Part shown: in pieces, positions 2,907-31,889 of the stretch
How the letters are laid out: each line of letters begins with the position of its first letter
Position numbering within the stretch: position 1 is the first letter of the stretch
NCBI RefSeq assembly: GCF_000014265.1
Contig: NC_008312.1
Coordinates: forward strand, 2,220,001 to 2,252,000
Length of the DNA stretch: 32,000 bases
From: Trichodesmium erythraeum IMS101
GTDB lineage: Bacteria > Cyanobacteriota > Cyanobacteriia > Cyanobacteriales > Microcoleaceae
Direction of reading: 5' to 3'
Made by a program: the position numbers and the translations under genes
The notes under the pieces: model-generated
Seen by the model: only the letters and a program-made list of their open reading frames with translations
Databases searched by the model: none
What the model was told of the DNA's origin: nothing

Positions 2907-3434
2907 CTAATTATTTAAACCCCTAAATTCCGCAAGATTTAAAGCAGCTAACCTTTGAATCTTTTCATCAGAATGATCAAGTAAATCACTTAAAACTTCT
3001 CTCCCATAAGGAGTACCAATTTTCACTAAATCTCCCATTGCTATTTCCGAACCTTTCTCCGCTAAACCCTTCAATAAAGAGACTGCAATATCCCCCATAT
3101 TAATAAGAGCTTGACGAGCATCTACCAAATTAATATCCTCATAATACCTAAACAAAATATCCGCAGCTTGTGGCAAATTTGTCTTAGATAATACCTTAAC
3201 AGAAGCCCGACGAATTTCCAGATCTTCAGAATAATTCAAAGCATTTTCTAGGAACTCAAAAACAACTTTTCCCCTACCACTCGGACGAATATCAGAAGCA
3301 ACTGCTCCAAAAGCTCTAGCCAAATTTTCATCATAATTTGCTTCTCCCAATTTTTCCTTAAACTCTTCAATAATTTTCTCCGCCAACTCAGGAGAAACTT
3401 CTTGAGCATCCGCTAAACATTCAAAAGCCGTCAA
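2907..3434 (-). CDS. HEAT-repeat protein, probably the C-terminal part of the interrupted NACHT-HEAT gene
   Basis: Repeated helical motifs typical of HEAT/PBS-lyase-like repeats (LVDARQALINMGD..., LLDHSDEKIQRLAALNLAEF). Same reading frame as 3507..5219. nt 3435-3506 are open in that frame. The called start is only a TTG. Confidence 0.7.
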   Translation of the reverse strand: MTAFECLADAQEVSPELAEKIIEEFKEKLGEANYDENLARAFGAVASDIRPSGRGKVVFEFLENALNYSEDLEIRRASVKVLSKTNLPQAADILFRYYEDINLVDARQALINMGDIAVSLLKGLAEKGSEIAMGDLVKIGTPYGREVLSDLLDHSDEKIQRLAALNLAEFRGLNN

Positions 3435-3506
3435 AGAATCTTCCTGATAAATAACCCCTATTAAATTTGTACTATTTCCCGCAAACCCACACCAAAGTTT
3501 GACCGT

Positions 3507-5219
3507 TTATCGCCAACGTTTCGGGTCATTTTTAAACCTTTCTATTAACTCATTTTCTTTCTCCCTCAAAGCCGCTGCTGCAAAATATTCTTGCAAAGTT
3601 AAGTGAGCAAATTGATATTTATCCCCCCTCTCAATTTTTAACAATAATCCACTACGTTCGACAATTTCTCTTAATATTAGTTGAGTATCTTTTTCAGGAT
3701 TGAGATTCAAAGAAGGTAAAACTTTTTGAACTTGTTCCAAGACTATTTGATAGTCTAAACTTAGGTCATTTTTTTGTTGTTTACCAGCATTATCTTGAGC
3801 AAATAAAGCCAAATGTTGTAGCACTCTCCGCTTATGAGCACTCTCCTTATATTGATTAAAATTATTCTGCCATTGATTCAATAAAATATGAGTAGATTCT
3901 TGATAAAAATCTGACCGAGACTGAGGCAAAACAAAATTAACTTGAGTATAAAGATGAGCAACAATTGTCAACATTAAAGGATTTCTAGCTAACTCCATAA
4001 TTAGAGGTCTATCTCTCAAAGTTTGTATGAGTTGATTGATAGATTTATCTGGTGGCATTTGATATTTCCATGCTTCTAAAAAAAGTCGCATTTGTCTGTC
4101 ACTAAATTCTTTAAGATCCAATGTTTTTTCTACAGACTCAGCAAAATCATTGTAATAAACTGCTGCCCGACAAGTAATAATTACTCGACATTTATCGTAC
4201 TTATCTAATAAATCATTAATAGCTTGTACAATTTGATAACGAATGGAACTTTTAACTTCATCTAATCCATCCAATAACAAAAATAATTTTCCTTTTTCCA
4301 GACTTTGCTCCACAAAAGAATTAGCTTTAGGAAAATCATCCCTATCCAAAGCTTCTACTAATTTATGTTTGAAAACTTCCATGTTGAGGGCAGAAATTTC
4401 TATTTCATTGAAGCGATATAACTCTAATAAAATTGGCACATATTCATTAGAGGAACTATTTAATTTTTCCCTCGCCCAAGAGAGAACAAGATACTTTAAT
4501 AAAAGTGTTTTTCCTGCTCCAGGTTGCCCCTTAATAGTCAAACAATTATATTTTTTAATCTCAGAAAAATTAATTGGTTGATTATTAGCTTTTTCCAAGA
4601 ATTGCAAATCCACATAAATTTCTTGCAGACTCAAAGGACGATTAGGACGAAAAGGAATTTTTAGTTGTTCGTGTTTATTAATGAGACCTATTTTATAGCG
4701 TTTTATAGAGAAATTCCAAAACCATTCAAAACCAGCAATTTGATTATATAACCAGTTGCCAATAGTATTAATAAAATCAGTTATCCAACCTTGTATAGCT
4801 TCCTTAAAAATTAACACAATAAAAAGTGCTAAGGCAGCAAACCATCCCAACCCATAAAATAGATCGTCATTAATTTTTTCCCAGAGATTACTATCTTTTG
4901 CTTCCTTGAGTCTTGGGTATTCTTCCTCATAAATTTTGGTAATTTCTGGAGTAGTTAAACCTACATAATTTTGCTCATATAGTTCAATCATTAACCTACT
5001 ATCCATTGCCTTATCATTCTCAACATGACGTTCGGCATAGTCTTTAATTTCTTGAATTAAAACTGCACGGTTTTTAGTATTAGGTGTCTGAGTATAACTA
5101 GGTAATATCCAATTCCAAGACAATAGAATAGTTAATGTTAGTAAAAATAAACTAATCGAAAACAGTCGTTTAGAGGTATGTCGAAAAAGTTGAGTATAAG
5201 ATAAATTATATTTAGACAT
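3507..5219 (-). CDS. Membrane-anchored NACHT (STAND) NTPase
   Basis: Walker A GQPGAGKTLLLKYL (about nt 4505-4530), Walker B LFLLLDGLDEV. Two N-terminal TM helices flank an ~85-aa loop. Ends ...FKNDPKRWR then TAA at 3507-3509. Confidence 0.85.
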   Translation of the reverse strand: MSKYNLSYTQLFRHTSKRLFSISLFLLTLTILLSWNWILPSYTQTPNTKNRAVLIQEIKDYAERHVENDKAMDSRLMIELYEQNYVGLTTPEITKIYEEEYPRLKEAKDSNLWEKINDDLFYGLGWFAALALFIVLIFKEAIQGWITDFINTIGNWLYNQIAGFEWFWNFSIKRYKIGLINKHEQLKIPFRPNRPLSLQEIYVDLQFLEKANNQPINFSEIKKYNCLTIKGQPGAGKTLLLKYLVLSWAREKLNSSSNEYVPILLELYRFNEIEISALNMEVFKHKLVEALDRDDFPKANSFVEQSLEKGKLFLLLDGLDEVKSSIRYQIVQAINDLLDKYDKCRVIITCRAAVYYNDFAESVEKTLDLKEFSDRQMRLFLEAWKYQMPPDKSINQLIQTLRDRPLIMELARNPLMLTIVAHLYTQVNFVLPQSRSDFYQESTHILLNQWQNNFNQYKESAHKRRVLQHLALFAQDNAGKQQKNDLSLDYQIVLEQVQKVLPSLNLNPEKDTQLILREIVERSGLLLKIERGDKYQFAHLTLQEYFAAAALREKENELIERFKNDPKRWR

Positions 5220-5466
5220 ATAAAGCTAATTATTAAATAATTCAGAAGTTAAATTATTACTTTGTTGTTTTGAGAAAAATAGGTTAAAATATTTAACTGA
5301 TAAAGAATAACTGATAACTAATTCAAGGAATATTAAATCCTAGCTTAGGATAGGTTTCGGCTGTCGCCAACATAAAAAGGAAACAATATATATTCTTAAT
5401 AGTAAAAATCATGTATTGCGGGCATCTTGCCAGCATAGCGATACCTTGTCACAACGGAAAACATTG

Positions 5467-5515
5467 TAACTTTTAACTTTTAACTTTTAACTTTTAACTT
5501 TTAACTTTTAACTTT
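5467..5515. repeat. Heptanucleotide STR (AACTTTT) x7
   Basis: Seven perfect tandem heptamers, read directly. Confidence 0.95.
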
Positions 5516-5568
5516 TGAATGTATGCCGTGAAATAGTATTATTAACTTGGGAAACTCTATAGTAAAAC

Positions 5569-6135
5569 TTATTCATCTTCATCAAACACAGGTGGCCAAA
5601 GTTCAAAAATAGATAATTCCCACTCACCAAATAATTCAGGAATAGTCAAAATATCTCCATTTTTTAACTCAATTTCTTCACCATTAGAACGATAAACTAT
5701 AACTATTTCTTCATCAGGGTCTATCAATATTCCTACTTGCGCCCCTAGTTCTAAATATTTTTTTATTTTCTGTTTTAGAGATTTAATTCTATCACTTTGA
5801 GACTTAATTTCTACTACTAAATCTGGGGTTAATTCCCCAAAATAACGAACACTTTTTTTCAAACGTTGTGCACGAACAAAAGAAACATCAGGAACTTTCA
5901 AGTTAGTATCTGGAAGGATAAAAGCACCACTAGAATCAAACAAACGTCCGAGACGACGTGGGTAAACCCAACTGCCTAATAGTCTAATTAATTGAACGCC
6001 AACTTCACTAGAAATAATATCTGACGGACCCATCACTAATATTTTTCCTTCATCCAATTCTAATTGATAATCTAAACCTACTTGATTAAGAGTATCTTGC
6101 AGTATTTCTAAGTCTTTAACTGTGAGATTTGACAT
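5569..6135 (-). CDS. Uma2-family (DUF820) putative restriction-type endonuclease
   Basis: 188 aa with ELDEGKILVMGP, PDVSFV, PDLVVEIKSQSD and KIKKYLELGAQ, matching the PD-(D/E)xK layout of cyanobacterial Uma2 proteins. Confidence 0.85.
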   Translation of the reverse strand: MSNLTVKDLEILQDTLNQVGLDYQLELDEGKILVMGPSDIISSEVGVQLIRLLGSWVYPRRLGRLFDSSGAFILPDTNLKVPDVSFVRAQRLKKSVRYFGELTPDLVVEIKSQSDRIKSLKQKIKKYLELGAQVGILIDPDEEIVIVYRSNGEEIELKNGDILTIPELFGEWELSIFELWPPVFDEDE

Positions 6136-15211: not shown

Positions 15212-16372
15212 ATGGTAAAAATGAAAATGAATGAAGAGGAAAAAAAACAACAAAACAAAATTCAGCGAGTGGGTGTTGTTGGTGGTGGTCAATTAGCATG
15301 GATGATGGGGGATGCAGCAAAAAAACTAGGAGTAGATTTAATTATTCAAACTCCTCATCAAGATGACCCAGCAGTATCTATTGCAAAGGATATAATTTTG
15401 GCAGAAATTGATGACCCTCAGGCAACTACTAAGTTAGCAAATATTTGTGATGTGATTACCTTTGAGAATGAGTTTATTAATATAGATGAGTTATCATATC
15501 TTGCTGAAAAGAATGTAATTTTTCGTCCTAGTTTATCTGTGTTGAAGCCGTTATTAGATAAATATGAACAGTTATGTTATTTACGATATTTGGGTTTACC
15601 TGTACCGAACTTTTGGGAGTGGGGAATAGAGATTGAGCCTTTATCTTTCCCTTTGGTATTGAAAGCTCGTCGTCATGGTTATGACGGTCAGGGTACTTTT
15701 ATTATTAAGAATATTGAGAGTTTAAAATCTCAGGGAAATTCAGAATTTTTCATACAAGAATTTATTCCTTTTGAACGAGAGGTTGCTGTTATTGCTGCTC
15801 GTGGAGTTACTGGGGAAGTTAAGGTTTATCCTGTGGTAGAAACTCAACAAGAAAACCAGGTTTGCCAGCGGGTTTTTGTACCTGATGAAAATTTAGAATT
15901 AGTAACAGAAATTGAAGAGATCGCTCAGACTCTCCTTAATAGTTTAGAAGTAGTAGGAGTATTTGGGATAGAAATGTTTATTACTAAAGACAAGAAGGTT
16001 TTAATTAATGAAATTGCTCCAAGAACTCATAACTCTGGTCATTACAGTTTGGATGCTTGTGAAGTTTCCCAGTTTGAACAACATTTACGGGCTGTTTGTG
16101 GTTTACCTTTAGGTAATACTACTCTCAAAGTAAGGAGAGCGGTGATGGTAAATTTATTGGGTTATGAATTTGGGGAAAATTACTACTTGACAAAACGGCA
16201 AATGTTAGAAAAAATTCCTCATGCTTCGGTTTGGTGGTATGGCAAAACAGAATCTCGCCCAGGACGGAAGTTAGGTCATGTGACTGTTTTGCTAGATGAG
16301 GAAAATTTTGAAATTATGGGTCGCAAGGGTGAGGCGATCGCTAATAAAATAGAGAATATCTGGTACACCTAA
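15212..16372 (+). CDS. purK: N5-carboxyaminoimidazole ribonucleotide synthase
   Basis: VGVVGGGQLAWMM, ATP-grasp LKARRHGYDGQGTF, NEIAPRTHNSGHYS, GRKLGHVT. The start could also be the ATG at 15221 or 15227. Confidence 0.9.
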   Translation: MVKMKMNEEEKKQQNKIQRVGVVGGGQLAWMMGDAAKKLGVDLIIQTPHQDDPAVSIAKDIILAEIDDPQATTKLANICDVITFENEFINIDELSYLAEKNVIFRPSLSVLKPLLDKYEQLCYLRYLGLPVPNFWEWGIEIEPLSFPLVLKARRHGYDGQGTFIIKNIESLKSQGNSEFFIQEFIPFEREVAVIAARGVTGEVKVYPVVETQQENQVCQRVFVPDENLELVTEIEEIAQTLLNSLEVVGVFGIEMFITKDKKVLINEIAPRTHNSGHYSLDACEVSQFEQHLRAVCGLPLGNTTLKVRRAVMVNLLGYEFGENYYLTKRQMLEKIPHASVWWYGKTESRPGRKLGHVTVLLDEENFEIMGRKGEAIANKIENIWYT

Positions 16373-16687
16373 AGCTTGCTGTTGCCTCTTTTAGACACTT
16401 TATGACTTTTGACTTTTAAATTTTGAAGTTTGACTGCATAAAGGGGGGTGACAGAAAAAAAATAACCGCTATAATAATCATTAGGTTCTACTATGACGTT
16501 GGTAACTGCCAAAAATGTTTTTTTGACCTACAAATCAAAAAACATGGGAATCTAGATTTTTAAGTGTCAGTAAACTGGGCTTGTATCCAGAAACTTTAAA
16601 CTTAAGCCAAGATACCCACCTGGTATTATCCAGGTCAAAAGCTGAGGTAAGACGGCGTTGCGGTAGACCATTTTTATGTAGAGTAAA

Positions 16688-16872
16688 AAAGTTGGAACTA
16701 AAGTTTTGATATCCTCCCTGGCTGTGACTCGCGGGAAATAACTGAGAAAAGCTCCCTCAGCAGCTTGACGTTTCCAAGGCTGCTAACCACACTCCTTTCC
16801 CTGAGTATAGTTTTTGTACCGCAGTTGAAACCCTTCCATTCTCGCGCCTTAAAGGTCTAACTTACCAACTTT
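16688..16872 (+). ncRNA. ssrS: Candidate 6S RNA (ssrS/ssaA); placement tentative
   Basis: As I recall, cyanobacterial 6S RNA lies downstream of purK on the same strand. Here AAAGTTGG (16688-16695) pairs with CCAACTTT (16865-16872), giving a 185-nt span. An internal hairpin CAGCAGC...GCTGCT and further complementary blocks are present. I could not fold it rigorously by hand. Confidence 0.3.
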
Positions 16873-17816
16873 AAACCCATAGAATGAAACAATTTTAATG
16901 TTGGCTCCCAAGGAATAATTATTCGGAACGAGGGACCTTATTTTTCTGATTTTCCCTCTAAAAATATTTGTATGGGTTCTTTATCTGATCATCACTAATT
17001 GCTTTTGTTCTTGTATCCTATAGCTTTCCCTGAATAAGAGTGATTTTTACCCGTGTATTTTTATATCATTTAAATAGTATCATAAGTCGTGATAGTGCTT
17101 TATATAGTCAAGAGAATATCCAGTTAATCTCAAATTTAAAATGGACAACTAGGACCTCAATGACTTGAAAAAGGGCGAAGGAAATAATTGAATTAGACCT
17201 TGAAGAGGTAAAAATTTTTTCTGAAACAGACCCAAAAATCACAAAAATAACCAGGGGTACTTCTTGAAATTGAATATTAATGGTTGCAACAAAAAGTTAC
17301 TTATGCTGGTATTAGAGGGTATCTATAAATAAAACCTTAAGGGACAAGACCATTTAGTTTTAGTAGAATTATAGCAATTAGAGGATACCATTGATAATTT
17401 CTTGTAACTCTACTATTTGCTTTCTCCCTCGTAATTCTGATTTTACCACAGTTAGGATGGGAGCTATTGTTTCCTAGTGACGATCGCTTAGGTCTGTGGA
17501 ATAGGTTTTGGGAGTCATATACTCTAATTTTTAATATCTGGTTATTTCTATCTTCTTGCTTTTACCCCCTTTATTATTTGATTTTAATTTTTTTTAACAG
17601 GTATCTTCTTAAACAAAAGAGTTGTTGGGAATTAAGCCTAAAAAATGCCTAAAACCAAAAACAAGTTTAGGCTAAAGGGTGCTCTTGAGAATGAAAAAAA
17701 CTAAAAAGCTTATAGAGTAAACTTTTGAGAATTTAAAATTTTCCCACACCCAACAAATCTAGTATTCATCAAGTTCTATAAGCTTAATTTTTTTAAGCGA
17801 TCGCCTCTTAACTTAC

Positions 17817-18050
17817 CTACTCCCCAAATAATCTTCCTACCGAAGCCTCCAGAACCCTAAACACCAAAGGTATAACTACCCCCTGACTCAAAATTTCTTG
17901 CGACTCATAACCGGCATCAGTAGGAGAAGAAAAAAATTCGAACTTTGTGCTCTGACAAATTAATTATCCAATATTCTTGAATACCTTCCACAATATAAAT
18001 CTTCTTCTGTTTTTCTTTAAAAGTACTACCAACGGGTAAAGATGATGAGT
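17817..18050 (-). pseudogene. Uma2-family endonuclease remnant (C-terminal fragment, frameshifted)
   Basis: Minus-strand translation gives KEKQKKIYIVEGIQEYWIINLSEHKVRIFFFSY*. After a -1/+1 shift at the A/T run near 17925-17935 it reads SPTDAGYESQEILSQGVVIPLVFRVLEASVGRLFGE*. Both match the Uma2 C-terminal consensus (GIxEYWIxN...V..Y, then G.I.PL.F..LE..V..LFG). No N-terminal half is present. Confidence 0.5.
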
Positions 18051-18829
18051 AGGTAAAAAATAGTGAAAGACTTACTTGTCTCCATTGCAATACTAATCTA
18101 ATAATATAGTTTCGCTAATATATTTATGAATAAAAACCAGAAGTGAGTGACTTAAGATTATTAGATCATGTTCAAGAATATACAAATCATAAAAATCAGT
18201 TAACAAAAGAATATGTAGTAGTTTTTATATCATATAATATTATGTTTATGCCACAGAAAAGCATCTAGTAATTTACCCTGAGATTGTAATATTTTATAAC
18301 TACGGGGTTTGGTCTCCAAAAATGAGTAAAAATAGGATTAATATGACCAAAATTATAGAGTTTTTTTTACCAATTATTTCATATTACTATCTAAAAATAT
18401 CGTTTTAAGCTTCTGGCTTTAGCAGTAGACAATAAAAGTGAAAAAATATTTTTTTCCCTTAAAATGATAGGATTAAGACATTATTTATTTTTCAAAAATA
18501 ATGAATAATCGGATATTTTTAATCAAAATAATTCTCATAATTTGTGTTAAATAGAACACAGTAAAATAAGTTTTTTTATTGTAAGAAAATATAACTTTAT
18601 TTACCGGATAAATTTTTGCTGGTGATGGATTGTTATGATAGTCTATTGTAATTATTGGAGTCAAAAACAAGAGCAGTGGGGGCATCTTGGAACCATATTA
18701 GGTTTTTTTAATCCCTACTATTGCGGGAAAAGAAATACTAAACTTTTATATTTTCCTTATTATTTTAACAGGAACTTTTGCTATATAATAATATAGATAT
18801 TTATAGTTGCTTACCAAGGAGAAATCAAT

Positions 18830-21048: not shown

Positions 21049-21576
21049 ATAAAGAAGAAGTAAAGAGGAAGAAGGAAGAACTAGTAAATTTTGAAAAAAA
21101 GGGAAAAATAATAGATATCTTATTAATTAGCCATAATAAAAATGCTTTTCTTTTTCTAATTGCTCCCAAGTCCAAATTTCCAATTCTCAATTCCCTAAAG
21201 TTTTTCCACAGTGAATATTCAAAGAGACATAATATAAAATGAATTGGAGGAGCACTTGTTGTAGCATTCTTTTTTCAATGGTTGTATTATAGCATATTGA
21301 AAGTATGTGAAGTCAAAATATTAATTACCAAGTATTTATAGTGCCGGCCTCTTGCTCATTACTGCTGTACCTTACTGAAAATTAAGAGTTTAATACAAAT
21401 TCCTATTTACTAATGCTTTACTGAAATAAAGCTTTAGTTATTAAGTAATTAACATAAAGGGAATAAATGTTTTCTCACGGGGTGACAAGCTAGTTGAAAG
21501 CTATATATAGAAAGGAATTTGTGTTCGGGAACTGAAGAATATTTCAACAAAAAGAAAACGCTTATTGGACTGGGAA

Positions 21577-21615
21577 GGGGTGTAGTGCGAGCGCAGAGCG
21601 CTCGCACTACACCCC
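21577..21615. repeat. 39-nt perfect GC-rich palindrome inside the left TIR
   Basis: GGGGTGTAGTGCGAGCGC-AGA-GCGCTCGCACTACACCCC. Confidence 0.9.
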
Positions 21616-21713
21616 CTACCCATGGTTGATTATTTATTCATTAAAACATTAAAAAAAACTGTTAAAAATATGATAAAAAAGGGTTAATAATTACAAAAAA
21701 AAAAGAAGAAAAA

Positions 21714-22862
21714 GTGAATATATTAGGCTTTTATCAAGACCATATTAAGCAAAAGTTGAGTCCATCTCAAGTAGTAACATTACAAATATTATTATACTTA
21801 ATTTCAGTACATAAAACTGTACAAATATCAAAGCTAACCAATTATTTTCAGCTACCAATTAAATCAGAAAGTAAGCGAAAACTTATGCGAAAGATTTTTA
21901 ACCCTAAAGGAATTAAGTTTACCTATATTTTGGTTCCCTTTAGTCAAAATAATGGTAAAAAATCTCTTCAGCTTTACCTCAGAGTTAGTGTTGATTTTAG
22001 ACCGCACTCAGTGGCAAAATATTAATATTTTAATGATAACTGTAGCTTGGAAAAAGACAGCTTTACCTATATATTGGAAGATTTTATCTCATAAAGGAGC
22101 TAGTAATTTAACCGAACAAAAATCAGTAATTCGCCCTGTATTAAAATTATTGAAAGCACACAAAATAATTCTCACAGCACCCTAGAATTCCACAGTATTT
22201 TCCTGTGCCATTGGTTGAAAGAATATAAAAAAAAAGACGTATATTTTGTCTTAAGACAAAAAAAATCAACTATGATAAAACGAGGGAGAAAATATTGTCA
22301 ACTCTCAGAGTTAAAAGTAAATATCGGTGAATCCCAACTATTATTGAATCAAAAAATTACCAAAATTTTGAAGGTAGGAACATATAATTTACTTGTATAT
22401 AAAAGACAGAAATATCGTCACAATTCTGTTTCAGAGAAATGGTATATTCTCTCCAATTTATCATAGTAATGTGGAAAAGTTAAAAAAATATATAGCCAGA
22501 GAATGGCTATAGAAGCCATGTTTAAGGATTATAAAACTGGTGGTTATAATCTAGAATCAGCAAAAGCCAACGAAACTAGACTTAATAATCTAATTTTATT
22601 AATAGCTATTTCATACACAGTTAGTTCATTTAAAGGACAAGAAATTAAAAACAAAGGAGTTCAAGAATATATATCAAGAACTAATGAAAGAGGTAGAAAA
22701 GAAAGAAGAAACAGTAGTTTTTGCTTAGGGTTATCTAGTATTTATTGGGCAATAAATGATGATTTAATGTGGAAATTAGTAGAAAATTTAATGAGCCTTA
22801 ATCCTCATAAATTACTATATTATCGCAGGGGAATAAAAGCGATGAATAAAGTGGTTAATTAG
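21714..22862 (+). pseudogene. IS4-family DDE transposase, fragmented into at least 4 ORFs
   Basis: The fragments read ...LILDRTQWQNINILMITVAWKKTALPIYWKILSHKGASNLTEQ... (first D region), ...EFHSIFLCHWLKEY..VYFVLRQKK (GDREF region destroyed by a stop and a frameshift near 22185-22200) and ...AIEAMFKDYKTGGYNLE (YREK-type motif). Frames 0/1/0/0 with internal stops. Confidence 0.8.
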
Positions 22863-22955
22863 ACTGTAATTTTTGATTAAAAATTAATTAATAAAGTTAA
22901 GTTTTTTCATGATATTATTCTACTGCACAACTTGAATTATTATTCAACCCAGTTA

Positions 22956-22996
22956 GGGGGTGTAGTGCGAGCGCTCTGCGCTCGCACTACACCCCC
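22956..22996. repeat. 41-nt perfect GC-rich palindrome inside the right TIR
   Basis: GGGGGTGTAGTGCGAGCGC-TCT-GCGCTCGCACTACACCCCC, the inverted counterpart of 21577-21615. Confidence 0.9.
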
Positions 22997-23280
22997 TTCC
23001 CAGTCCAATAAGGATTTTTTTTTATTGAATTATTCCTCAGCTCCTGAAGGTAAATCCCTTTATATATATAGCTTTCAACTGGCTTGTCACCCCGTGAGAA
23101 ATGTTTTACACGATTAAAGCCTTAGAATTATGTTAATTTTATAAATGTTTAAGTGGGGACGTTCTATAGAACATCTCTACTTACTTTCCCTCCAGGGAGT
23201 GGTTAGGAGTGAGTCCCGGACTCAAAATACTAATTAGAAAAATTGTTGAGAAATGGTGTAATTCTGAATTATGCTACACA

Positions 23281-23480
23281 TAGCGATCGCCACATAAGGA
23301 CAGAATAATTATTATAATTCAGTTACCAGGGCAGCTCATAAATTTTCGCAAGAGTTCTGAGTGCTGAGTTCTCATTTCAGCTATAAGTGAGCGATCGCTA
23401 CGTAACCACAGAATAATTATTATAATTCAGCCCAGCTATCAGAGCAGCTCATAAATTTTCGCACATCTAAAAATTTGAGC
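23281..23480. repeat. Two decayed direct copies of the 3' end and downstream region of the giant gene
   Basis: GCGATCGC-ac.taa..ACAGAATAATTATTATAATTCAG...CAGCTCATAAATTTTCGCA occurs twice (cagaataatt at 23301 and 23409). It matches the true gene end cgatcgctacacaagcacagaataattgttctg (cagaataatt at 23666). Confidence 0.75.
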
Positions 23481-23488
23481 CTATTAAC

Positions 23489-23583
23489 TTCTGAGTTCTG
23501 AGTTCTGAGTTCTGAGTTCTGAGTTCTCAGTTCTGAGTTCTGAGTTCTGAGTTCTCAGTTCTCAGTTCTCAGTTCTCAGTTCA
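23489..23583. repeat. Heptanucleotide STR (TTCTGAG/TTCTCAG) x13
   Basis: 13 tandem heptamers with G/C variant order 5G, 1C, 3G, 4C, read directly. Confidence 0.95.
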
Positions 23584-23654
23584 TAAATTTTCCCACCTGT
23601 GAAATTTGAGTCTATTAAATTAGAACTTCTGACTTAAACTATATAGGTCGATCG

Positions 23655-26600
23655 CTACACAAGCACAGAATAATTGTTCTGTTGAATATCAAAATTAACA
23701 TTGTAATATGGGTCTCCCAGATCCATATCAATTTGCCATTTATCTAACAACAACATATAATCAAGCATATCATAATTTTCCTGTCTATGTTTCTCTAATT
23801 TATTATTAATTAAAACACTGCGAGGAGTAAACATAATTCGCTTACCTTTTTTCCGTAACTTCAAACACAAATCAACATCCTGATAATCACAGAAAAAATG
23901 TTCATTAAAACCACCTACCAATTCAAAATTTTCACGACTCACCATCAAACATTTTCTACTTACAGCAGACACCTCTCTTGCACAAACTAAAGAACCTGCA
24001 TAACCATCATCATTAGTAGCAAAACCTCGCATCACATAGTTAACTTTTCCCAACTTTCCTAACACAATACCTGCGTCTTCAACAGTTCCGTCAGGTAAAA
24101 CCAAAAACCCTCCCACAGCACCAATATCAGATTGTTCTGCATAATATAAAAGATGTGTTTGCCAATCTTCAACTGTAGGTTCCAAATTAGTATTCAGAAA
24201 AACAAAATATTCACCCTTAGCAGTTTTTGCAGCTAAATTATAAGCACAAGAATAATTAAATTTACCAGATAAACTTAAAACCTTCACAGCAGGATTTTGG
24301 ATTAAATTATCTGTTCCATTGCCACTAATTAAAATTACTTCATTTTCAGGATAACTAGAAACAGATAATAAATTTTCCAACCATTGATTGAGATTTTCCG
24401 AAATATTAGGAATAGCAATAATCAAACTAATTAAAGGATAATTATTTCTTGGCAAAGGATGAATATTTACCCGATGTCTACCCAAACCAGGTTCCGCCTT
24501 TGCTGCTAAACCAATTCTTTCCAAATGAGTATTAACAGCAGCCTGTTGTAATTTTTCAATATCTGCTTTAGCATCAGCATCTCCCGAAATACTTCCTTTC
24601 ACTTGTCGCCAATGATAAAGATGTTTAGAAATATGAGCAATTTTATTAGTTTGCTCGGAAACTCGTAACATAAACTCATAATCTTGTACCCCATCAAATT
24701 CACTCTTAAAACCTCCAACAGCCACAGCTATTTCTCGACGTAAACATAATAAATGACCGACATACATTACACCACGAAAATATTCGGGGGACCAGTCAGG
24801 TTTAAAGAATGGATGAGTATAATTTAACCCAGAAAAATCAATTTTATCTTCATCAGAATAAACCACATCAAATCCTTCTGCCAGTTTAGACAAACTATTT
24901 TCTAAAGCTGTCGGTGCTAGAGTATCATCATGGTCTAATAAACAAATAAATTCTCCCGTAGCCATTTTTAATGCCTTATTTGTCGCAGCACTAATACCAC
25001 CATTATCTTCTGACAATATAACTTTAATTCTCGACTCTTTTTCTGCTAAACCTGCCAGAACATTTTTAATTTCTAGCTGTTTTGATCCATCATCAACAAT
25101 ACACCATTCCCAGTCAGGAATAGATTGGTTGAGAACACTCAAAACTGTTTCTACAAACCAATCTAAAGAAGAATTCCAAGTAGGGGTAAGGATACTAATA
25201 GAAGGTTGAGAAAAATCTCTTTTTCCTTCTATTGAAATTACTAGATTAATAATTTCCCAGAACTTTTCGACTGTTACTCCTGATAAACCCAATAATTCTT
25301 GTTTTTGTTTTTTAGGGTTTCCCGGCAAATTCACATTTACTTCTGCTAGTTTTTTATCAGTAATTTTGTCTTCCAACCCAGGCAAATTATTAATTTCTGC
25401 CACTGGTTTAGCAGGAGTTTTTTCTGCTAAACTCAACAATTTTTTATCTTGCTTGACAGGAAATAGATTTTGAGTTGGAGTATTTGTATTTCTAGATTTG
25501 AACTTTTCCAAATCTGCTTGAATTTCTTGAATCTCTGTTTGTGATTTTTCCAAATCTGCCGTTATTTCTGTCAGTAACAGAGAAATAGAAGAGGTAGCTG
25601 TAGGAATTATTTCCACACTTTTTTCTGGCTTTTCAATTTTCAATTCTGACTTCTTTTCTTCCTCCTCATTTCCTGTTTTTTCTTCCTTCTGAATATCAAT
25701 TAAAGTAGCTGTAGGAATTATTTCCACAATTTCTTCTGGCTTTTCAATTTTCAATTCTGACTTCTTTTCTTCCTCCTCATTTCCTGTTTTTTCTTCCTTC
25801 TGAATATCAATTAAAGTAGCTGTAGGAATTATTTCCACAATTTCTTCTGGCTTTTCAATTTTCAATTCTAACTTCTGACTTGTAACCTCTGAATTCTTTT
25901 CTTCCTCCTCATTTCCTATTTCTTCTTCCTTCTGAATATCAAATTCTGATTTATGAGTTATGGGTTCTAACTTTCTGATTTCTGACTTCTCAAGGATCAA
26001 CATATCCAGATAACTTTTACAACCTACTCTTCCACACCAAGAACCATAAAATTTTCCCAAGACATCAAAACCAGAATTATTAACCCACTTCAACAATAAA
26101 GACTCCAGAAAACCCATACCTTTTTCTGGTGCATTTAGGTCTTTAGTAAAACCTTCTTGAAGTCGATGAATAAGAGGTTGAGAACTTTTACCTTTAGAAA
26201 TTAACTTTTCTGACTCATGGTTAACTAAGAAACAATTAAATAGCAGACGACCACCTGGTTTTACAACTCGATAAACTTCATCTAAATAATTACGAATTTC
26301 ACTCCCACCCACCTGAGTAAACCTAGAACTAATAAATACAAAATCAAAGCTTTTTGCATAATAAGGAAGTGGTAAATATGAATCTATCTGACGGAAGTTG
26401 CAATGAGGTTTTTGAGTAGTAATATTTTGTTGCGCCCAAGATATTAATTCCTCAGAAAAATCAAATCCTTCATAACGTCCTGGAGATTGCAAATAATAGG
26501 AAAGACCATAAGCTATATTCCCAATTCCACAACCAATCTCTAAAACTTCAGCAGTTGGTTGAAGAGCTACCCTTTGGATAAAATCACCTAAAAATTTAAA

Positions 26601-29600
26601 GCTTCTGGGAATAAAATTTTTTGCTCCCCCATCTATATATTTATCATTAGGAATAGGTAGGGATGGTTGAAATAATTTAAATAGAATATTTCCCTCTTTT
26701 CCTGAGAATATTGGAGTTAGAACAATCAAAGAATTTTGACAATTTTTAAGTTGTGCTTGAGAGAGAGAAATTTCCAGACGAAACCTAGAATTTCCAGCAT
26801 TATTAAGTTGAGGGCGAACTTTTGCTACATCTGGACTAGGTAAACCTAATTCTTGCACAAAAGAAGTAAATTTTTGACCGCCAATAACAACCTTAAAATC
26901 CTCTACAGAACCAAATTTAACCGAACCTACCCAACCAGATACTACTAATTTTTGATTATCAATTCCTACCTTTTCTAAATAACCAAAAGAATCAACCACT
27001 ATTGAGGTAACAAATTTATCAATTGCAGAATATTGCTCAGAATATTGTTGATTTTCAACTTCTGACTTTTGACTTTGACTAAGAGGTTGACCTGCCGTAT
27101 TAATAGCTTCAATTGATTCTATACAATTTGATTGTTTTGAAAGTATAGGATCTTCAGGAAAAGTACCTTGTTTAGGGATATCTAAAGTCTTAGATAAAAC
27201 TCCAACTTGATCATCTTTAAAGATAGGAATTAAATCAATCTGATAATTTTGGAATTGTGAAACTTGTTCTGAATTTAGAGATACTTTGATATGGAATCTA
27301 GCATGATGAGAATTATGAAGATTAGAGTGTATTTTTTTGACATCTGGACTAGGAATACCAGTCTTTAGTTCAAAACTGTTTATTTCTATAGCATCAAAAG
27401 TAACTTTAAAGTTTTCCAAAAAACCATTATTAATATCAGCAACCCAACCTTTAATAGATAATTCATTTTTATTTGTAAATTCTACTTTTTCCAGATATCC
27501 AGTTTCAGAAATAAGTTTAATATCCGGCATTTTCCGATCCGGAGATTGGTTGATAATTTCTGGCTTAGTAGCGATCGCTTCTGGAGACAAATCAAAATTT
27601 TCCTTCAGATTTTTCCGGAGCAATACTATATTTTGATTACCTCTAATTCCCCCCGGAAAATAATCAACTATTTCAAATAAATTAACCCACTTATTTCTGA
27701 CATATTCTTCTGTCTGAAGCGTAATTCCATACCAATCTGGAAAGACATTTTTATATGCTGAAGATGGCATATGTATTAATCCTAATTCTACTAATTTAGG
27801 TGCCATTTCAATAGCTTCCTTAGGACTTCTTAGTTGGCGAGTTGTTATTAGTACAACACCCCCTGGTTTAGTAATTCTTTCCAATTCTTGCAACCATTTC
27901 AACTGCATTTCCTCATTAATATCAGTAAATACTGAGATGAGATAAATAAAATCAAATTGATTATCTTCATAAGGCAAAGGTGGCAATGCTTGGTTAACAT
28001 TAAACTTAGCAAACTTAATATTTTTTTGACACCATGATATAGCTTCAGTATCAGTATCTGTAGCGTATAGAGAAGTAGAATCACTTTCTGAACTATACCA
28101 AATAATTACCCGTCCACAACCACAACCAAAATCCAATACTGATTTAAATTCACTAAAATTTTTACCAATTTTCTGGAGTGCCGTTCTTATATCTATACTT
28201 ATTTGTCTACCTACCTCTAAAAAAGCACTAATTTCAGAGTCTCCATGAACTCGCGTGACTAAATTTTTTAGTGGAAATGATATAGATTTGCCATCAGGTA
28301 AAACTAGATGAGGGGCAACATTCTTATCCTGATTAATAACTTTATAGTTAACAGCTTTATCCCGTCCATCAACAGGAGAAATTACTTTAAGAAGCGGCAA
28401 ACCTTTACGCCCCTGAAAAAAGGGAGTTAAAGCTACAACAGAGCCTATAAACTCTTCAATTTGTGTTTGAGATAAAGTTACTAATAAGTGAAAACGAGCA
28501 ACTTCAGCACTGTCTAAATGGGGAAAAGTTTTTTTAACATCAGGACTTGAGAGACCCAAAAATTGTTCAAAATTTATTAACTTTTGACCTGCCACAGTAA
28601 CTTCAAAACTATCTACAAGACCAGAATTAAATGAAGCTGCCCAACCAGACAAATTTAACTGTTGATTCTTAATTTCTGCAACTTCCAAATTTCCTACCGT
28701 TGCTACAGTTTTATATTTTTGTAGAGGTGAACTTATAAAACTTAATTTTTTCCTAGGAGTTTTTCGTAAATTCAAAGCAGCTTCATAAAGCTCCATATCT
28801 TGACTATTAGCTACTGCTAATTCATCCATTAACTTTTTATCTGACAAGACTTTCTTTTGAAACTCAATATATTCTGGATAGGGATTTCTATTTTGATAAA
28901 TCACCTCATAATCACACCATCCAAAAATACTTTTCAGTTCCAGTAAATCCTCAGCAAAATGTTCTGTAATTCCTATAAAATCAAAATAATCTAAAGACTT
29001 AGCATTTACACAGTAAGCCATCAAATTACTATTACCTTGAGCAAACTTTAATAAACTCTCTTTATTTAAATGATCTTGAGTAGGATTAGACATGTGGCGA
29101 AAACAATAATCAGAAATTAACCTGTGTATCGGTTCTCTTAACCATGTAATTCTGTAAGCATTAGGAAATAATTTGTCATACTTACCTGCCCGAAAATGAC
29201 CCTCAATAACTTTAGTTTGCCAATGAATAGTAGCCGGCATATTATCTTCAAACATATTAGTTTTATCAGTAAGAACTCCTTGAGTTCCATAAACCTGTAA
29301 TAAAACCTGTCTAAAAGCAGTTCCAGCAGCTTTTGGTACATGAACAGAAATCAATTCTACTTGGGGAGTAGTAGTTGGTAAATCATTAGTTTCTGATGTT
29401 TTTAATAAAGAAGATAAAGCAGGAGTAACACCATTTAATAGAGGTTCTCCTTCACGATTTTTTACTAAAGGAATTAAAATAATCAGAGAATCTTTAAATT
29501 CTTGTTGCTGCTGTTTATTCATTGGCAACCTAATAATAAACCGAGCATTATCAGCAGCAGAAATATTAGGATGTGCTTTTTTTACTCCAGGACTAGGAAT

Positions 29601-29795
29601 ACCTTGAGTTAATCTAAATTCTGTTAATTGTTTACTGTCAAATAAAACCTTAAAATTAGTTACCATTTCAGATTCAAATGACAGAACCCATCCACTTAAA
29701 CAAACAGTTTCATTTTCTATTGCTAGTTGGTCTAAAAATCCAGTAGTTGCTGCTAGTTGTTGAGGTTGTTTATCTGCCATTTCAAATTTTTCCAT
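23655..29795 (-). CDS. Giant multidomain glycan-assembly/modification enzyme: X-sulfotransferase-X-SAM MTase-X-X-SAM MTase-repeat/coiled-coil-GT2-GT2
   Basis: Uninterrupted 2046-aa ORF. Approximate domain map in nt:
- X1 29433-29741.
- Sulfotransferase 28770-29360 (HVPKAAGTAF PAPS-type motif).
- X2 28385-28705.
- MTase-1 27610-28300 (VLDFGCGCGRV).
- X3 27195-27510.
- X4 26670-26995.
- MTase-2 25990-26660 (VLEIGCGIGNI).
- E/K repeats and coiled coil 25480-25935.
- GT2-1 24590-25205 (ISILTPTWN, IVDDGS, LLDHDD).
- GT2-2 23800-24435 (ISLIIAIPN...). Confidence 0.9.
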   Translation of the reverse strand: MEKFEMADKQPQQLAATTGFLDQLAIENETVCLSGWVLSFESEMVTNFKVLFDSKQLTEFRLTQGIPSPGVKKAHPNISAADNARFIIRLPMNKQQQQEFKDSLIILIPLVKNREGEPLLNGVTPALSSLLKTSETNDLPTTTPQVELISVHVPKAAGTAFRQVLLQVYGTQGVLTDKTNMFEDNMPATIHWQTKVIEGHFRAGKYDKLFPNAYRITWLREPIHRLISDYCFRHMSNPTQDHLNKESLLKFAQGNSNLMAYCVNAKSLDYFDFIGITEHFAEDLLELKSIFGWCDYEVIYQNRNPYPEYIEFQKKVLSDKKLMDELAVANSQDMELYEAALNLRKTPRKKLSFISSPLQKYKTVATVGNLEVAEIKNQQLNLSGWAASFNSGLVDSFEVTVAGQKLINFEQFLGLSSPDVKKTFPHLDSAEVARFHLLVTLSQTQIEEFIGSVVALTPFFQGRKGLPLLKVISPVDGRDKAVNYKVINQDKNVAPHLVLPDGKSISFPLKNLVTRVHGDSEISAFLEVGRQISIDIRTALQKIGKNFSEFKSVLDFGCGCGRVIIWYSSESDSTSLYATDTDTEAISWCQKNIKFAKFNVNQALPPLPYEDNQFDFIYLISVFTDINEEMQLKWLQELERITKPGGVVLITTRQLRSPKEAIEMAPKLVELGLIHMPSSAYKNVFPDWYGITLQTEEYVRNKWVNLFEIVDYFPGGIRGNQNIVLLRKNLKENFDLSPEAIATKPEIINQSPDRKMPDIKLISETGYLEKVEFTNKNELSIKGWVADINNGFLENFKVTFDAIEINSFELKTGIPSPDVKKIHSNLHNSHHARFHIKVSLNSEQVSQFQNYQIDLIPIFKDDQVGVLSKTLDIPKQGTFPEDPILSKQSNCIESIEAINTAGQPLSQSQKSEVENQQYSEQYSAIDKFVTSIVVDSFGYLEKVGIDNQKLVVSGWVGSVKFGSVEDFKVVIGGQKFTSFVQELGLPSPDVAKVRPQLNNAGNSRFRLEISLSQAQLKNCQNSLIVLTPIFSGKEGNILFKLFQPSLPIPNDKYIDGGAKNFIPRSFKFLGDFIQRVALQPTAEVLEIGCGIGNIAYGLSYYLQSPGRYEGFDFSEELISWAQQNITTQKPHCNFRQIDSYLPLPYYAKSFDFVFISSRFTQVGGSEIRNYLDEVYRVVKPGGRLLFNCFLVNHESEKLISKGKSSQPLIHRLQEGFTKDLNAPEKGMGFLESLLLKWVNNSGFDVLGKFYGSWCGRVGCKSYLDMLILEKSEIRKLEPITHKSEFDIQKEEEIGNEEEEKNSEVTSQKLELKIEKPEEIVEIIPTATLIDIQKEEKTGNEEEEKKSELKIEKPEEIVEIIPTATLIDIQKEEKTGNEEEEKKSELKIEKPEKSVEIIPTATSSISLLLTEITADLEKSQTEIQEIQADLEKFKSRNTNTPTQNLFPVKQDKKLLSLAEKTPAKPVAEINNLPGLEDKITDKKLAEVNVNLPGNPKKQKQELLGLSGVTVEKFWEIINLVISIEGKRDFSQPSISILTPTWNSSLDWFVETVLSVLNQSIPDWEWCIVDDGSKQLEIKNVLAGLAEKESRIKVILSEDNGGISAATNKALKMATGEFICLLDHDDTLAPTALENSLSKLAEGFDVVYSDEDKIDFSGLNYTHPFFKPDWSPEYFRGVMYVGHLLCLRREIAVAVGGFKSEFDGVQDYEFMLRVSEQTNKIAHISKHLYHWRQVKGSISGDADAKADIEKLQQAAVNTHLERIGLAAKAEPGLGRHRVNIHPLPRNNYPLISLIIAIPNISENLNQWLENLLSVSSYPENEVILISGNGTDNLIQNPAVKVLSLSGKFNYSCAYNLAAKTAKGEYFVFLNTNLEPTVEDWQTHLLYYAEQSDIGAVGGFLVLPDGTVEDAGIVLGKLGKVNYVMRGFATNDDGYAGSLVCAREVSAVSRKCLMVSRENFELVGGFNEHFFCDYQDVDLCLKLRKKGKRIMFTPRSVLINNKLEKHRQENYDMLDYMLLLDKWQIDMDLGDPYYNVNFDIQQNNYSVLV
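25594..25926 (-). repeat. In-frame 111-bp tandem repeat x3 (37-aa E/K-rich unit) inside the giant CDS
   Basis: gtagctgtaggaattatttccaca recurs at 25594, 25705 and 25816 (period 111 = 37 codons). The unit encodes ELKIEKPEEIVEIIPTATLIDIQKEEKTGNEEEEKKS. Two copies are near-identical and the third is diverged. Confidence 0.95.
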
Positions 29796-30044: not shown

Positions 30045-31889
30045 TTAAAAACTTTTTTCCAATACTAACAAATCTTCTTTAATAGATGAAGTCCGACCAC
30101 ACCAAGAACCATAAGATTTTTCTAGAACATTAAAGCCTCGTTCTTCTATCCATTGTAATATTAGATTTTCCCTAAAACCAATCCCTTTCTCTGGCAGATT
30201 AATATCTATAGTAAAACCATCCTCTATTTCATAAATAAGCTGTTGAGAACTTTTACCTTTAGTAATCAACTCTTCTGATTCTGAATTAATTAAAAAGCAA
30301 ATTAATAAACATCTCCCTCCCGGTTGTAAAACTCTATATATTTCATCAAGAAAATGACGAACTACAGAACTTTGTAAATGAATAAATAAACGGGAAATAC
30401 AAACACAATTAACACTTGAATTAGGATAAGGAAAAATAAAATCATTGGCAGATATTTTACCTGTAGAATTGTAGATACAGTGATAAATATTGTACCAGTT
30501 AAAATTAAAATTCGGCTTACGAGTCGTAATTTCTTGTTTTATCAAGGAAATAAAATCTTCCGTCATATCAAAACCTTGATAACGACCAGAAGGTTGTAAA
30601 TAATGAACTAAAGTATAAGCTACAGTACCAATATTGCAACCAATATCAAGAATATAGTCTGTTGGTTGTAAACCTAATCTTTGAATTAAACTTCCTAATA
30701 ACTTGAAGGAATTATTAATAAATTGATTACTAATATCTTTCCCAACTATTTCTAGATATTCCCTATCTGGCAGTGGTAAAAGAGGTGTTAATGCTGTTAA
30801 TATAACTATACCCTCACCCCTATTAAACAGAGGAATCAAACAAATTAATGAATGTTTTATTTGATTAATTTGTTCTTGATTTAAAAGAACTTTTATGCGG
30901 AATCTAGCATTACCTGCACCAGATAAACTAGGGTGAATTTTTTCCACATCTGGACTAGGTATATTCAGAGTTTGTTCAAAGAAACTAAAATCTTGATTCC
31001 CAACAGAAACTTTAAATCCTTGCACCATACCAGCATCTAAGGAGGCAACCCAACCAGATAAATATAAAACTTGATTTTTAAGTATTACCCGATCGATAGA
31101 ACCCCAAGTAAGTAAAGGATTAATTTTTCGTTTCTTGCCAATAATATCTTTCTTTTCAGAGTTATTTTGAGTATAGTATTGTATCTCTGATGTTTTTTTC
31201 CGCCGCTCCCGTAAACTTAATGCTTCTTGATAAATTTCTATATCTTCGTGATTTATGGCTGATATTTTACCGACTATTTCTTGGTTAGATAATACTTCTT
31301 TAATTAATAATTTATATTCTAAATAAGGATTAGTATTTGGAGCTTCTAATTCATACTCTGACCAATCTAACATTACCTTAAGTTCATATAAATCCTCACT
31401 AAAAAATTCTTGGATACCCACAAAATAAAAATATTTTAGTTGCTCGTTTTGCAGAAAATTTAATTTGATTAGATTCTGCATTTCTGGTTTTTCAGCAAAT
31501 TCTATAAAACTCAAATTAGTATCTTTGGAATTTCCTAAATATTCTTGATCATTTGCTAGTAATATTTGCCAGCTCTTCCAAAAAAAGTAAAGAGAAACTA
31601 ACCGCTTGATCGGATTCCTCAGCCAAATAATTTTTTTAGCTCCCGGAAATTTTTGATTATATTTTGGAGCAGGAAAATGACCATGAATTATTTTGACTTC
31701 TGGCTTTTGTTTGGTTAACATCCGATTCCGAATCTGACCTTTGTGAGGGTAGTCAAAGAAAATTTCTTCTGAGCTATATACCTGTCTAATAACACCCTTA
31801 AATGCAGTACCAGCAGTTCTTGGTATATGAATTGAAATAATTTCTATATTAGTACGATCAGGTTTTATAGTTTGATTTCTTTGGGTCAT
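30045..31889 (-). CDS. Sulfotransferase-X-SAM methyltransferase, paralogue of parts of the giant protein
   Basis: 614 aa. IHIPRTAGTAF (about 31801-31830). X module LYLSGWVAS...PSPDVEKIHPSL...ARFRIKV (about 30795-31095). MTase ILDIGCNIGTVAY (about 30618-30653). The C-terminal half aligns with X4 plus MTase-2 of the giant protein. Confidence 0.9.
   Translation of the reverse strand: MTQRNQTIKPDRTNIEIISIHIPRTAGTAFKGVIRQVYSSEEIFFDYPHKGQIRNRMLTKQKPEVKIIHGHFPAPKYNQKFPGAKKIIWLRNPIKRLVSLYFFWKSWQILLANDQEYLGNSKDTNLSFIEFAEKPEMQNLIKLNFLQNEQLKYFYFVGIQEFFSEDLYELKVMLDWSEYELEAPNTNPYLEYKLLIKEVLSNQEIVGKISAINHEDIEIYQEALSLRERRKKTSEIQYYTQNNSEKKDIIGKKRKINPLLTWGSIDRVILKNQVLYLSGWVASLDAGMVQGFKVSVGNQDFSFFEQTLNIPSPDVEKIHPSLSGAGNARFRIKVLLNQEQINQIKHSLICLIPLFNRGEGIVILTALTPLLPLPDREYLEIVGKDISNQFINNSFKLLGSLIQRLGLQPTDYILDIGCNIGTVAYTLVHYLQPSGRYQGFDMTEDFISLIKQEITTRKPNFNFNWYNIYHCIYNSTGKISANDFIFPYPNSSVNCVCISRLFIHLQSSVVRHFLDEIYRVLQPGGRCLLICFLINSESEELITKGKSSQQLIYEIEDGFTIDINLPEKGIGFRENLILQWIEERGFNVLEKSYGSWCGRTSSIKEDLLVLEKSF

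Follow-up and report, generated by a model that had tools for sequence, protein, structure and literature searches.

A repeated, predicted immunoglobulin-like domain in two sulfotransferase- and methyltransferase-containing proteins of Trichodesmium erythraeum IMS101, and its probable kinship with Big_7 and RDV repeats

Lactobacillus enzymes of glycoside hydrolase family 70 (GH70), for example Gtf180 and GtfA, possess in their N-terminal region five fibronectin type III (FNIII)-like domains of ~125 residues (PMC11299179). These domains, the RDV repeats, are secreted, always present in five copies and located N-terminal to the glucansucrase. The Pfam family Big_7 (PF17957), whose model has 70 positions, occurs in extracellular proteins, including clostridial amidase/glucosaminidase autolysins and chitinases. 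EfAmi1, the endolysin of an Enterococcus faecium prophage, is a peptidoglycan amidase that harbours a single domain of this kind at its C-terminus (residues ~186-324 of PDB entry 8C4D), with the signature GW...RPDV...GF. Its authors proposed that this domain is a new carbohydrate-binding module (CBM) (PMC10167349). Here we describe a module of ~110 residues found in five copies in two adjacent genes of the cyanobacterium Trichodesmium erythraeum IMS101. The genes lie in a window of 32,000 nucleotides (contig NC_008312.1, positions 2,220,001 to 2,252,000), which is the whole stretch of DNA analysed, and coordinates below refer to this window. Very probably, the module is an immunoglobulin (Ig)/FNIII-like beta-sandwich of the superfamily that includes Big_7, the GH70 RDV repeats and the EfAmi1 C-terminal domain. 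It is well supported that the copies in Trichodesmium form part of a separate, mainly cyanobacterial branch outside all Pfam models, which lacks secretion signals and is apparently cytoplasmic.

The five copies are in frame on the minus strand, X1 to X4 in a giant protein of 2046 aa and X5 in its 614-aa neighbour. The giant protein is organised as X1, sulfotransferase, X2, methyltransferase MT1, X3, X4, methyltransferase MT2, a repeat spacer and two family 2 glycosyltransferase (GT2) domains, while the neighbour consists of a sulfotransferase, X5 and a methyltransferase. According to the envelopes of a profile hidden Markov model (HMM), X1 spans positions 29421-29747 (aa 17-125), X2 28374-28700 (aa 366-474), X3 27180-27506 (aa 764-872), X4 26664-26990 (aa 936-1044) and X5 30783-31109 (aa 261-369 of the neighbour). 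A preliminary description of this DNA, made from the sequence alone, had placed five copies within 15 nt of these boundaries and held that they align without large gaps. This is borne out by the five-copy alignment, which contains one indel of a single residue and 16 invariant columns, at a pairwise identity of 33-43%. Leave-one-out profiles scored the omitted copy at 105-123 bits, versus at most 6.6 bits for the best of 200 shuffles. No sixth copy was found in a six-frame translation of the window searched with the five-copy profile, the next best score being 1.7 bits. Comparison of the neighbour with the giant protein by BLASTP gave matches limited to the module for X5-X1 (E 8e-24) and X5-X3 (E 6e-18), and two longer matches (E 4e-103 and 6e-68) running through X4 and X2. 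One of the long alignments pairs X4 and MT2 with X5 and the neighbouring methyltransferase (47% identity over 354 aa), and the other comprises the sulfotransferase and X2.

All five copies possess G-x-[LI]-[DE] and GW. X2 to X5 read S-P-D-V...[AS]-R-F, X1 reads S-P-G-V...A-R-F, and the C-terminal part of the module follows L-I-x-L-[TI]-P-x-F...P-x-L-P-x-P. The shared motif listed in the preliminary description (G-x-[LI]-[DE], GW, PSP[DG]V, [AS]RF and L-[IT]-P) was therefore accurate. Its statement that each copy sits immediately N-terminal to a catalytic domain holds for four of the five: X1 ends ~20 aa before Sulfotransfer_2, ~60 aa separate X2 from the downstream MT1 core, and X4 and X5 are contiguous with MT2 and with the neighbour's methyltransferase. 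It does not hold for X3, where a ~65-aa linker leads to X4 as the next domain. An 88-aa protein from the Logan assemblies (P0001) reproduces X3 closely, but with S, P, H, T and A systematically replaced by F, S or L, Y, I and V, for example PSPDV by FSLDV and HSNLHNSHHARFH by YFNFYNFYYVRFY. C-to-T converted (bisulfite-type) reads would be expected to show this pattern, and a real variant would not.

Scans with Pfam and NCBIfam, run on the two whole proteins and on each copy in isolation, detected no model covering any of the five segments, so the module had rightly been called unassigned. AlphaFold2, given the five copies as an alignment, predicted for X1 an all-beta sandwich of 8-9 strands with short helices (predicted local distance difference test, pLDDT, 88.3; predicted template modelling score, pTM, 0.79). 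A Foldseek search of the PDB with the single module returned exclusively Ig-like domains, namely MHC alpha-3, beta-2-microglobulin and Ig constant domains, all as weak matches (best E 4e-3, template modelling scores 0.41-0.56). Judged from the predicted model, the module is of Ig-like fold and has no close solved relative. Two of the checks proposed in the preliminary description, a profile HMM built from the five copies and structure prediction followed by Foldseek, were both run. The former revealed a remote superfamily and no confident hit to a characterised Pfam domain, since Big_7, the sole Pfam family that is related, is a distant one for which no function has been established. The latter agreed with the beta-sandwich suggested earlier, the structure being predicted as ordered and globular both alone and in a di-domain with the methyltransferase (pLDDT 93.7).

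Two candidate similarities were rejected. Searches of PDB sequences with the 5- and 45-sequence profiles matched beta-carbonic anhydrases over ~40 residues around the GW strand (E 0.016-0.13), which we took as chance because the matches are short, do not reach significance and belong to a fold context that is unrelated. A single copy of the five matched TarS_C1 (PF18674), at a non-significant E of 0.073. Separately, the best viral match in a Foldseek search of BFVD with the single module was A0A7S9SU02, a protein of 323 aa from Virus NIOZ-UU157 (TMq 0.66, root-mean-square deviation 3.0 Å, 16% identity, E 1.8e-3). Going by this structural match, A0A7S9SU02 may hold a viral homologue of the domain.

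Word-indexed protein searches gave just 1 and 8 matches. HMMER, run exhaustively against 1.84 billion representative proteins, detected 344 relatives at E<=1e-3, of which 150 reach E<=1e-10; the matched proteins form two classes. In class A the whole module is matched (profile positions 2-110, 60-150 bits) one to four times per protein. In class B there are four to eight weaker stretches of 10-35 bits each, with a periodicity of ~110-125 aa. The members of class B are secreted enzymes of cell walls or polysaccharides, such as amidase_3/glucosaminidase autolysins and Lactobacillales proteins that bear a KxYKxGKxW signal, GH70 glucansucrases among them. The stretches in autolysins coincide with Pfam Big_7 matches (in P0012, for example, residues 865-943 versus Big_7 at 862-946). 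In the GH70-type repeats, the consensus RpDVakvyp.v.na..SGF...vvsRys, with D and GW before it, is that of the published RDV repeat.

Profile-profile comparison joined the two classes. With hhalign, class A aligned to Big_7-type repeats with 98.2% probability (E 5e-14) and to GH70-type repeats with 98.5% probability (E 3e-15). A 45-sequence class A alignment matched the mixed class B profile with 98.6% probability (E 5.8e-16) over 101 columns, that is, over the whole domain. Among the sequences listed in the PDB, the mixed class B profile matched that of EfAmi1 alone (8C4D, residues 208-317, E 6e-12); PDB sequence searches with the module profiles gave no direct match to EfAmi1. The preliminary description had pointed to a likeness to GW...RPDV...GF modules, which hmmsearch and hhalign identify as real homology. 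It could not name a family; at superfamily level one can be named, as Big_7 grouped with the RDV-repeat/FNIII-like domains found in GH70 enzymes (PMC11299179).

The copies depart from the RDV repeat in a defined manner. The first RDV motif, R-[PNSTQ]-D-V, is not found in any of the five, which lack Arg at its first position. Of the second motif, [SA]-G-[YF] after 11-12 residues, they keep a 12-residue spacing and [AS]-x-F, with Arg in place of Gly. The third motif, R-[YF]-S at 17-22 residues further on, is absent in all five, where the region reads [SN]-x-[LIVQ]-[IV]-x-L-[IT]-P. We counted signature residues in 579 aligned superfamily domains and analysed the same alignment by mean-field direct coupling analysis (DCA). 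Of these domains, 576 have GW, 560 have the Asp of xPDV and 552 have the [FY] of x-x-[FY]. The positions directly preceding P-D-V and this [FY] are tightly coupled and carry the pairs (R,G) in 446 domains, (S,R) in 75, (S,G) in 14 and (R,R) in one. This pair of positions ranks first of 2211 in DCA, with a score of 7.18 versus 3.73 for the next (SD 0.44). The top 15 also include W24-D58, G23-D58, W24-V59 and W24-F74, as well as strand-strand pairs as expected for a sandwich.

Read from these alignments, the signature arginine is relocated from R-P-D-V to a-R-F in the cyanobacterial branch, the signature being otherwise kept. Two class A members have jointly reverted to R..G, and in Lactobacillales arrays individual repeats carry S..R while neighbouring repeats carry R..G; the coupling is therefore more than a clade marker. 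The sequence pattern suggests that one arginine is needed in the cluster and can be supplied from either position, and we infer that the relocated arginine would keep the same salt bridge. The most conserved residues of the GH70 repeats lie on the domain surface and not in the core, and the DCA couplings fit the single surface cluster described for these repeats (PMC11299179). Copies of X1 type (X1, P0002, P0009, P0015 and P0024) read SPGV, with Gly replacing the Asp that the great majority of domains keep, which alters the cluster in copies of this type.

Among the 44 class A proteins, the module is combined with class I methyltransferases (27), GT2 (9), Sulfotransfer_2 (7) and GT92 (3), and Big_7 is absent from the 25 most frequent families listed for these proteins. 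In 24 sequences the module runs directly into one type of methyltransferase, with a conserved junction ...P-x-L-P-x-P. This unit of module and methyltransferase (X-MT), of ~350 aa, is also encoded as a stand-alone protein (P0036, P0070, P0111, P0130 and others), in which the module begins at residue 1-10. The high scores of the AlphaFold2 model of X5 with its methyltransferase (pLDDT 93.7, pTM 0.90) indicate a fixed, predicted arrangement of the two domains. Foldseek with the X-MT di-domain matched the methyltransferase half only, with the sugar O-methyltransferases RebM and AtmM among many generic matches, and found no solved structure combining an Ig-like domain and a methyltransferase in this architecture.

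Position-specific homologues from related cyanobacteria are 51-80% identical to the copies in the window, versus 33-42% between paralogues. The nearest homologue of X1 (P0002, residues 16-125, 79% identity) likewise precedes a sulfotransferase. X2 is 50-58% identical to P0004 517-626, P0007 160-269 and P0003 140-249, and the copy in P0003 precedes a methyltransferase of the first type. The X3-X4 tandem is kept in P0002 (381-490/516-625) and P0006 (9-118/144-253), before a methyltransferase of the second type. The closeness of copy-specific homologues relative to paralogues indicates that the duplications are old and that each copy has been maintained. Beyond the X-MT unit, extra copies were recruited before a sulfotransferase, before a methyltransferase of another type than that of the unit, and as the tandem partner in X3-X4.

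The giant protein (ABG50768.1/Q115Q6) is encoded at 23655-29795 and the neighbour (ABG50769.1/WP_011611146.1) at 30045-31889, both on the minus strand, as supported for the giant by the open reading frame list, its translation and the record match. Existing annotation calls them only 'Methyltransferase type 11' or 'glycosyltransferase', and a literature search found no mention of the two protein accessions. The following domains are all encoded on the minus strand. The sulfotransferase of the giant protein lies at 28746-29369 (Sulfotransfer_2, Pfam aa 143-313 with an approximate extent to ~350; E 2.1e-07, 31.8 bits versus a cut-off of 22) and can be aligned to that of the neighbour. The MT1 core, at 27825-28190, is a class I S-adenosylmethionine (SAM)-dependent methyltransferase (Methyltransf_23 in Pfam, aa 536-657). 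MT2, at 25980-26660 (aa 1046-1272, Pfam match aa ~1071-1200), is of the type found in the conserved X-MT unit, and its phmmer match to the neighbour's methyltransferase begins right at the end of X4. Two GT2-type domains are located at 23811-25205 (aa 1531-1730 and 1775-1995; Pfam Glycos_transf_2 in two stretches, E 2e-33; NCBIfam matches partial). In the neighbour, Sulfotransfer_2 covers aa 16-136 and beyond, and the methyltransferase occupies nt 30048-30779 (aa 371-614, Pfam aa 395-589).

Between the modifying and GT2 halves of the giant protein lies a spacer rich in Glu and Lys (25221-25973, minus strand, aa ~1275-1525) built of 37-aa (111-bp) tandem repeats. Tandem Repeats Finder (TRF) reports them at 25594-25876, with period 111, 2.5 copies and 98% match. 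Their number varies by strain, and a 2004-aa allele lacks exactly one repeat (aa 1357-1393). No signal peptide was found in the giant or the 614-aa protein, and neither has a hydrophobic segment (maximum 19-residue Kyte-Doolittle mean 1.21 in the giant and 1.57 in the neighbour). The co-substrates of such enzymes, 3'-phosphoadenosine-5'-phosphosulfate (PAPS), SAM and nucleotide sugars, are cytoplasmic.

Related loci were sought with a six-sequence alignment around G[LI]PSPDVKK, which reaches close relatives only; these are Okeania, Microcoleaceae and other cyanobacterial metagenome-assembled genomes (MAGs). The gene order Sulfotransfer_1/3, then sulfotransferase-X-methyltransferase, then a large gene containing X is found on Trichodesmium contigs and at two MAG loci (L001-L006, L013 and L014), the MAG loci having further sulfotransferase genes upstream. 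In Okeania KiyG1, the locus abounds in genes for sulfotransferases, methyltransferases and GT92/GT2 proteins. One stand-alone X-MT adjoins a multi-glycosyltransferase of 1850 aa, in a context that does not look cyanobacterial. Trichodesmium has abundant sulfotransferases, and cyanobacteria are characterised by sulfated polysaccharides (PMC8205485).

Other features of the window concern different subjects. A 6S RNA (Rfam RF00013, 107.7 bits, full length) lies on the plus strand at 16485-16670, directly downstream of a purK-like gene (15212-16372). On the minus strand, a HEAT-repeat protein (2907-3434), a NACHT/STAND NTPase (3507-5219) and a Uma2-family putative endonuclease (5569-6135) adjoin one another (2907-6135), and the pair with the NACHT/STAND NTPase could be a defence-type STAND module. 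The stretches 16700-18800 and 21050-23650 are long and contain short open reading frames only.

Regarding function, the reading we favour, with about an even chance of being right, is that the module is a non-catalytic, CBM-like domain that holds a glycan beside the fused modifying enzyme. The conserved surface cluster, a Trp with an Asp/Arg network, would hold the nascent, probably lipid-linked, polysaccharide, and the module would present the held chain to the sulfo- or methyltransferase next to it. The GT2 polymerase might thereby be kept on one chain with several modifying activities. Surface clusters of Trp and charged residues are typical of sugar-binding sites. The CBM-like role is favoured because of this cluster, because of the polysaccharide-enzyme contexts and because of the position of the EfAmi1 domain. 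The contexts of the superfamily are all carbohydrate-active: peptidoglycan hydrolases, GH70, chitinases, an endolysin, and sulfo-, methyl- and glycosyltransferases in sulfotransferase-rich clusters. The EfAmi1 domain occupies the C-terminal position usual for the cell-wall-binding domains of endolysins, as inferred by its authors (PMC10167349).

Several points weigh against this picture of a glycan-holding member of the Big_7/RDV superfamily. The Big_7 HMM misses all five copies even at E<=10 (Pfam gathering threshold 24.1 bits), and the superfamily link therefore rests on profile methods. The same HMM barely detects the clostridial repeat (24.4 bits versus the cut-off of 24.1) and does not match the GH70 RDV repeats, EfAmi1 or the cyanobacterial members, including those in the 'RG' state. 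Carbohydrate binding in the superfamily is itself the authors' inference only, and the sole PDB entry with such a domain, 8C4D, is a crystal from which the C-terminal domain was lost by proteolysis (PMC10167349). The Asp-Arg-Asp/GW cluster could be purely structural. Since X1 and its orthologs read SPGV, at least one copy may use the cluster differently. In addition, no ABC transporter or Wzx/Wzy genes were found in the sampled flanks of homologous loci.

The main rival takes the Ig-like modules as rigid connectors or spacers, or as drivers of homo-oligomerisation, in which the cluster stabilises the fold and no glycan is bound. We regard this as possible, and as the alternative to be taken most seriously. 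The C-terminal Ig-like domains of TarS drive homo-oligomerisation, and the similarity of one copy to TarS_C1 would point in this direction, although the match is not significant. The rigidity predicted for the X-MT di-domain (pTM 0.90) is what a connector would show, X3 in the X3-X4 tandem has no catalytic neighbour to serve, and the signature is kept whatever the partner or compartment, as expected for residues that stabilise the fold. Nonetheless, copy-specific conservation suggests more than generic spacing, and the EfAmi1 homologue lies where a cell-wall-binding domain usually does, again by its authors' inference. Ig/FNIII-like domains are often linkers in multidomain carbohydrate enzymes, a role discussed and not favoured for GH70, and the surface location of the most conserved residues, outside the core, argues against pure fold stabilisation (PMC11299179).

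Protein-protein docking is improbable. Here the copies would bring the two module-bearing proteins into one complex with the sulfotransferase encoded upstream, or would dock these enzymes to an export or membrane component. The module is common to two adjacent gene products whose gene order is conserved, and Ig-like domains commonly mediate protein-protein contacts. This explanation is less likely because stand-alone X-MT proteins, found in unrelated genomic contexts, and secreted homologues, with quite different partners, keep the signature without the partners that docking would call for. No candidate partner was identified. That the module is a wholly new fold or family without relatives, or a chance or low-complexity similarity, could be argued from the lack of a direct Pfam, NCBIfam or PDB sequence match and is already refuted for practical purposes by the 344 related representative proteins, the 98.6% hhalign probability to Big_7/RDV repeats, leave-one-out scores above 100 bits and the confident Ig-like model.

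Within the favoured glycan-holding reading, a further idea, which we consider a long shot, is that the five modules are cytoplasmic 'readers', each tuned to a modification state of the chain (unmodified, methylated or sulfated) and dictating the order in which the enzymes act. Copy-specific conservation and SPGV in X1-type copies hint at it without showing it. If true, it would give an assembly-line logic for glycan decoration, and the first ligand and function for the Big_7/RDV superfamily.

Together, sequences and models support a repeated Ig-like domain predicted to fold, superfamily membership at the profile level, a compensated signature and a fusion to methyltransferases predicted to be rigid. 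A previously unannotated domain is thereby named in ~40 representative proteins of cyanobacteria and other bacteria, and three separately described entities, Pfam Big_7, the GH70 RDV repeats and the endolysin C-terminal domain, are joined under one signature. A branch that lacks secretion signals and is fused to enzymes using SAM, PAPS or nucleotide sugars means that the superfamily is not confined to cell-surface adhesion, and it narrows ideas on the role of the GW/Asp/Arg cluster. If the glycan-holding role is true, X-MT offers a tractable unit of ~350 aa for finding the acceptor of a sulfated, methylated polysaccharide pathway. The value of the analysis is in annotation and hypotheses rather than in a new mechanism; it provides a useful domain annotation and not a new kind of system.

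As regards named systems, cytoplasmic glycan assembly also employs CBMs, such as the C-terminal CBM of the O-antigen ABC transporter Wzt, and O-antigen terminators, such as WbdD and WbbB, carry coiled-coil 'rulers'. The module may work like the CBM-type domain of Wzt, as a cytoplasmic beta-sandwich that acts on a nascent polysaccharide bearing modifications. The length-variable spacer between the modifying and polymerising halves of the giant protein is part of this analogy, as it recalls the rulers of the terminators. The likeness is one of architecture: no sequence or fold match was obtained, and no ABC transporter was found near the locus in the sampled flanks.

Similar to the GH70 RDV repeats, the module is a beta-sandwich of ~110-125 aa, present in several copies per protein in polysaccharide-synthesising enzymes, and in both cases each copy is nearer to its ortholog than to its paralogues. 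Both share a signature of an acidic residue, GW, x-[PNST]-D-V and, after 12 residues, x-x-[FY]. However, the GH70 repeats carry R-x-D-V...S-G-[FY]...R-[YF]-S, whereas the module copies carry S-P-D-V...A-R-F, have no signal peptide and precede sulfo- and methyltransferases. With the Big_7 repeats the module has in common an Ig-like fold, tandem copies and carbohydrate-active partners; it differs from them in its length, ~110 residues versus the 70 positions of the Pfam model, and in that Big_7 proteins are extracellular. The fold family was already known. New are a branch that lacks secretion signals, is joined to methyl- and sulfotransferases and is outside all Pfam models, the connection of Big_7 with the RDV repeats and the EfAmi1 C-terminal domain, and the relocation of the signature arginine.

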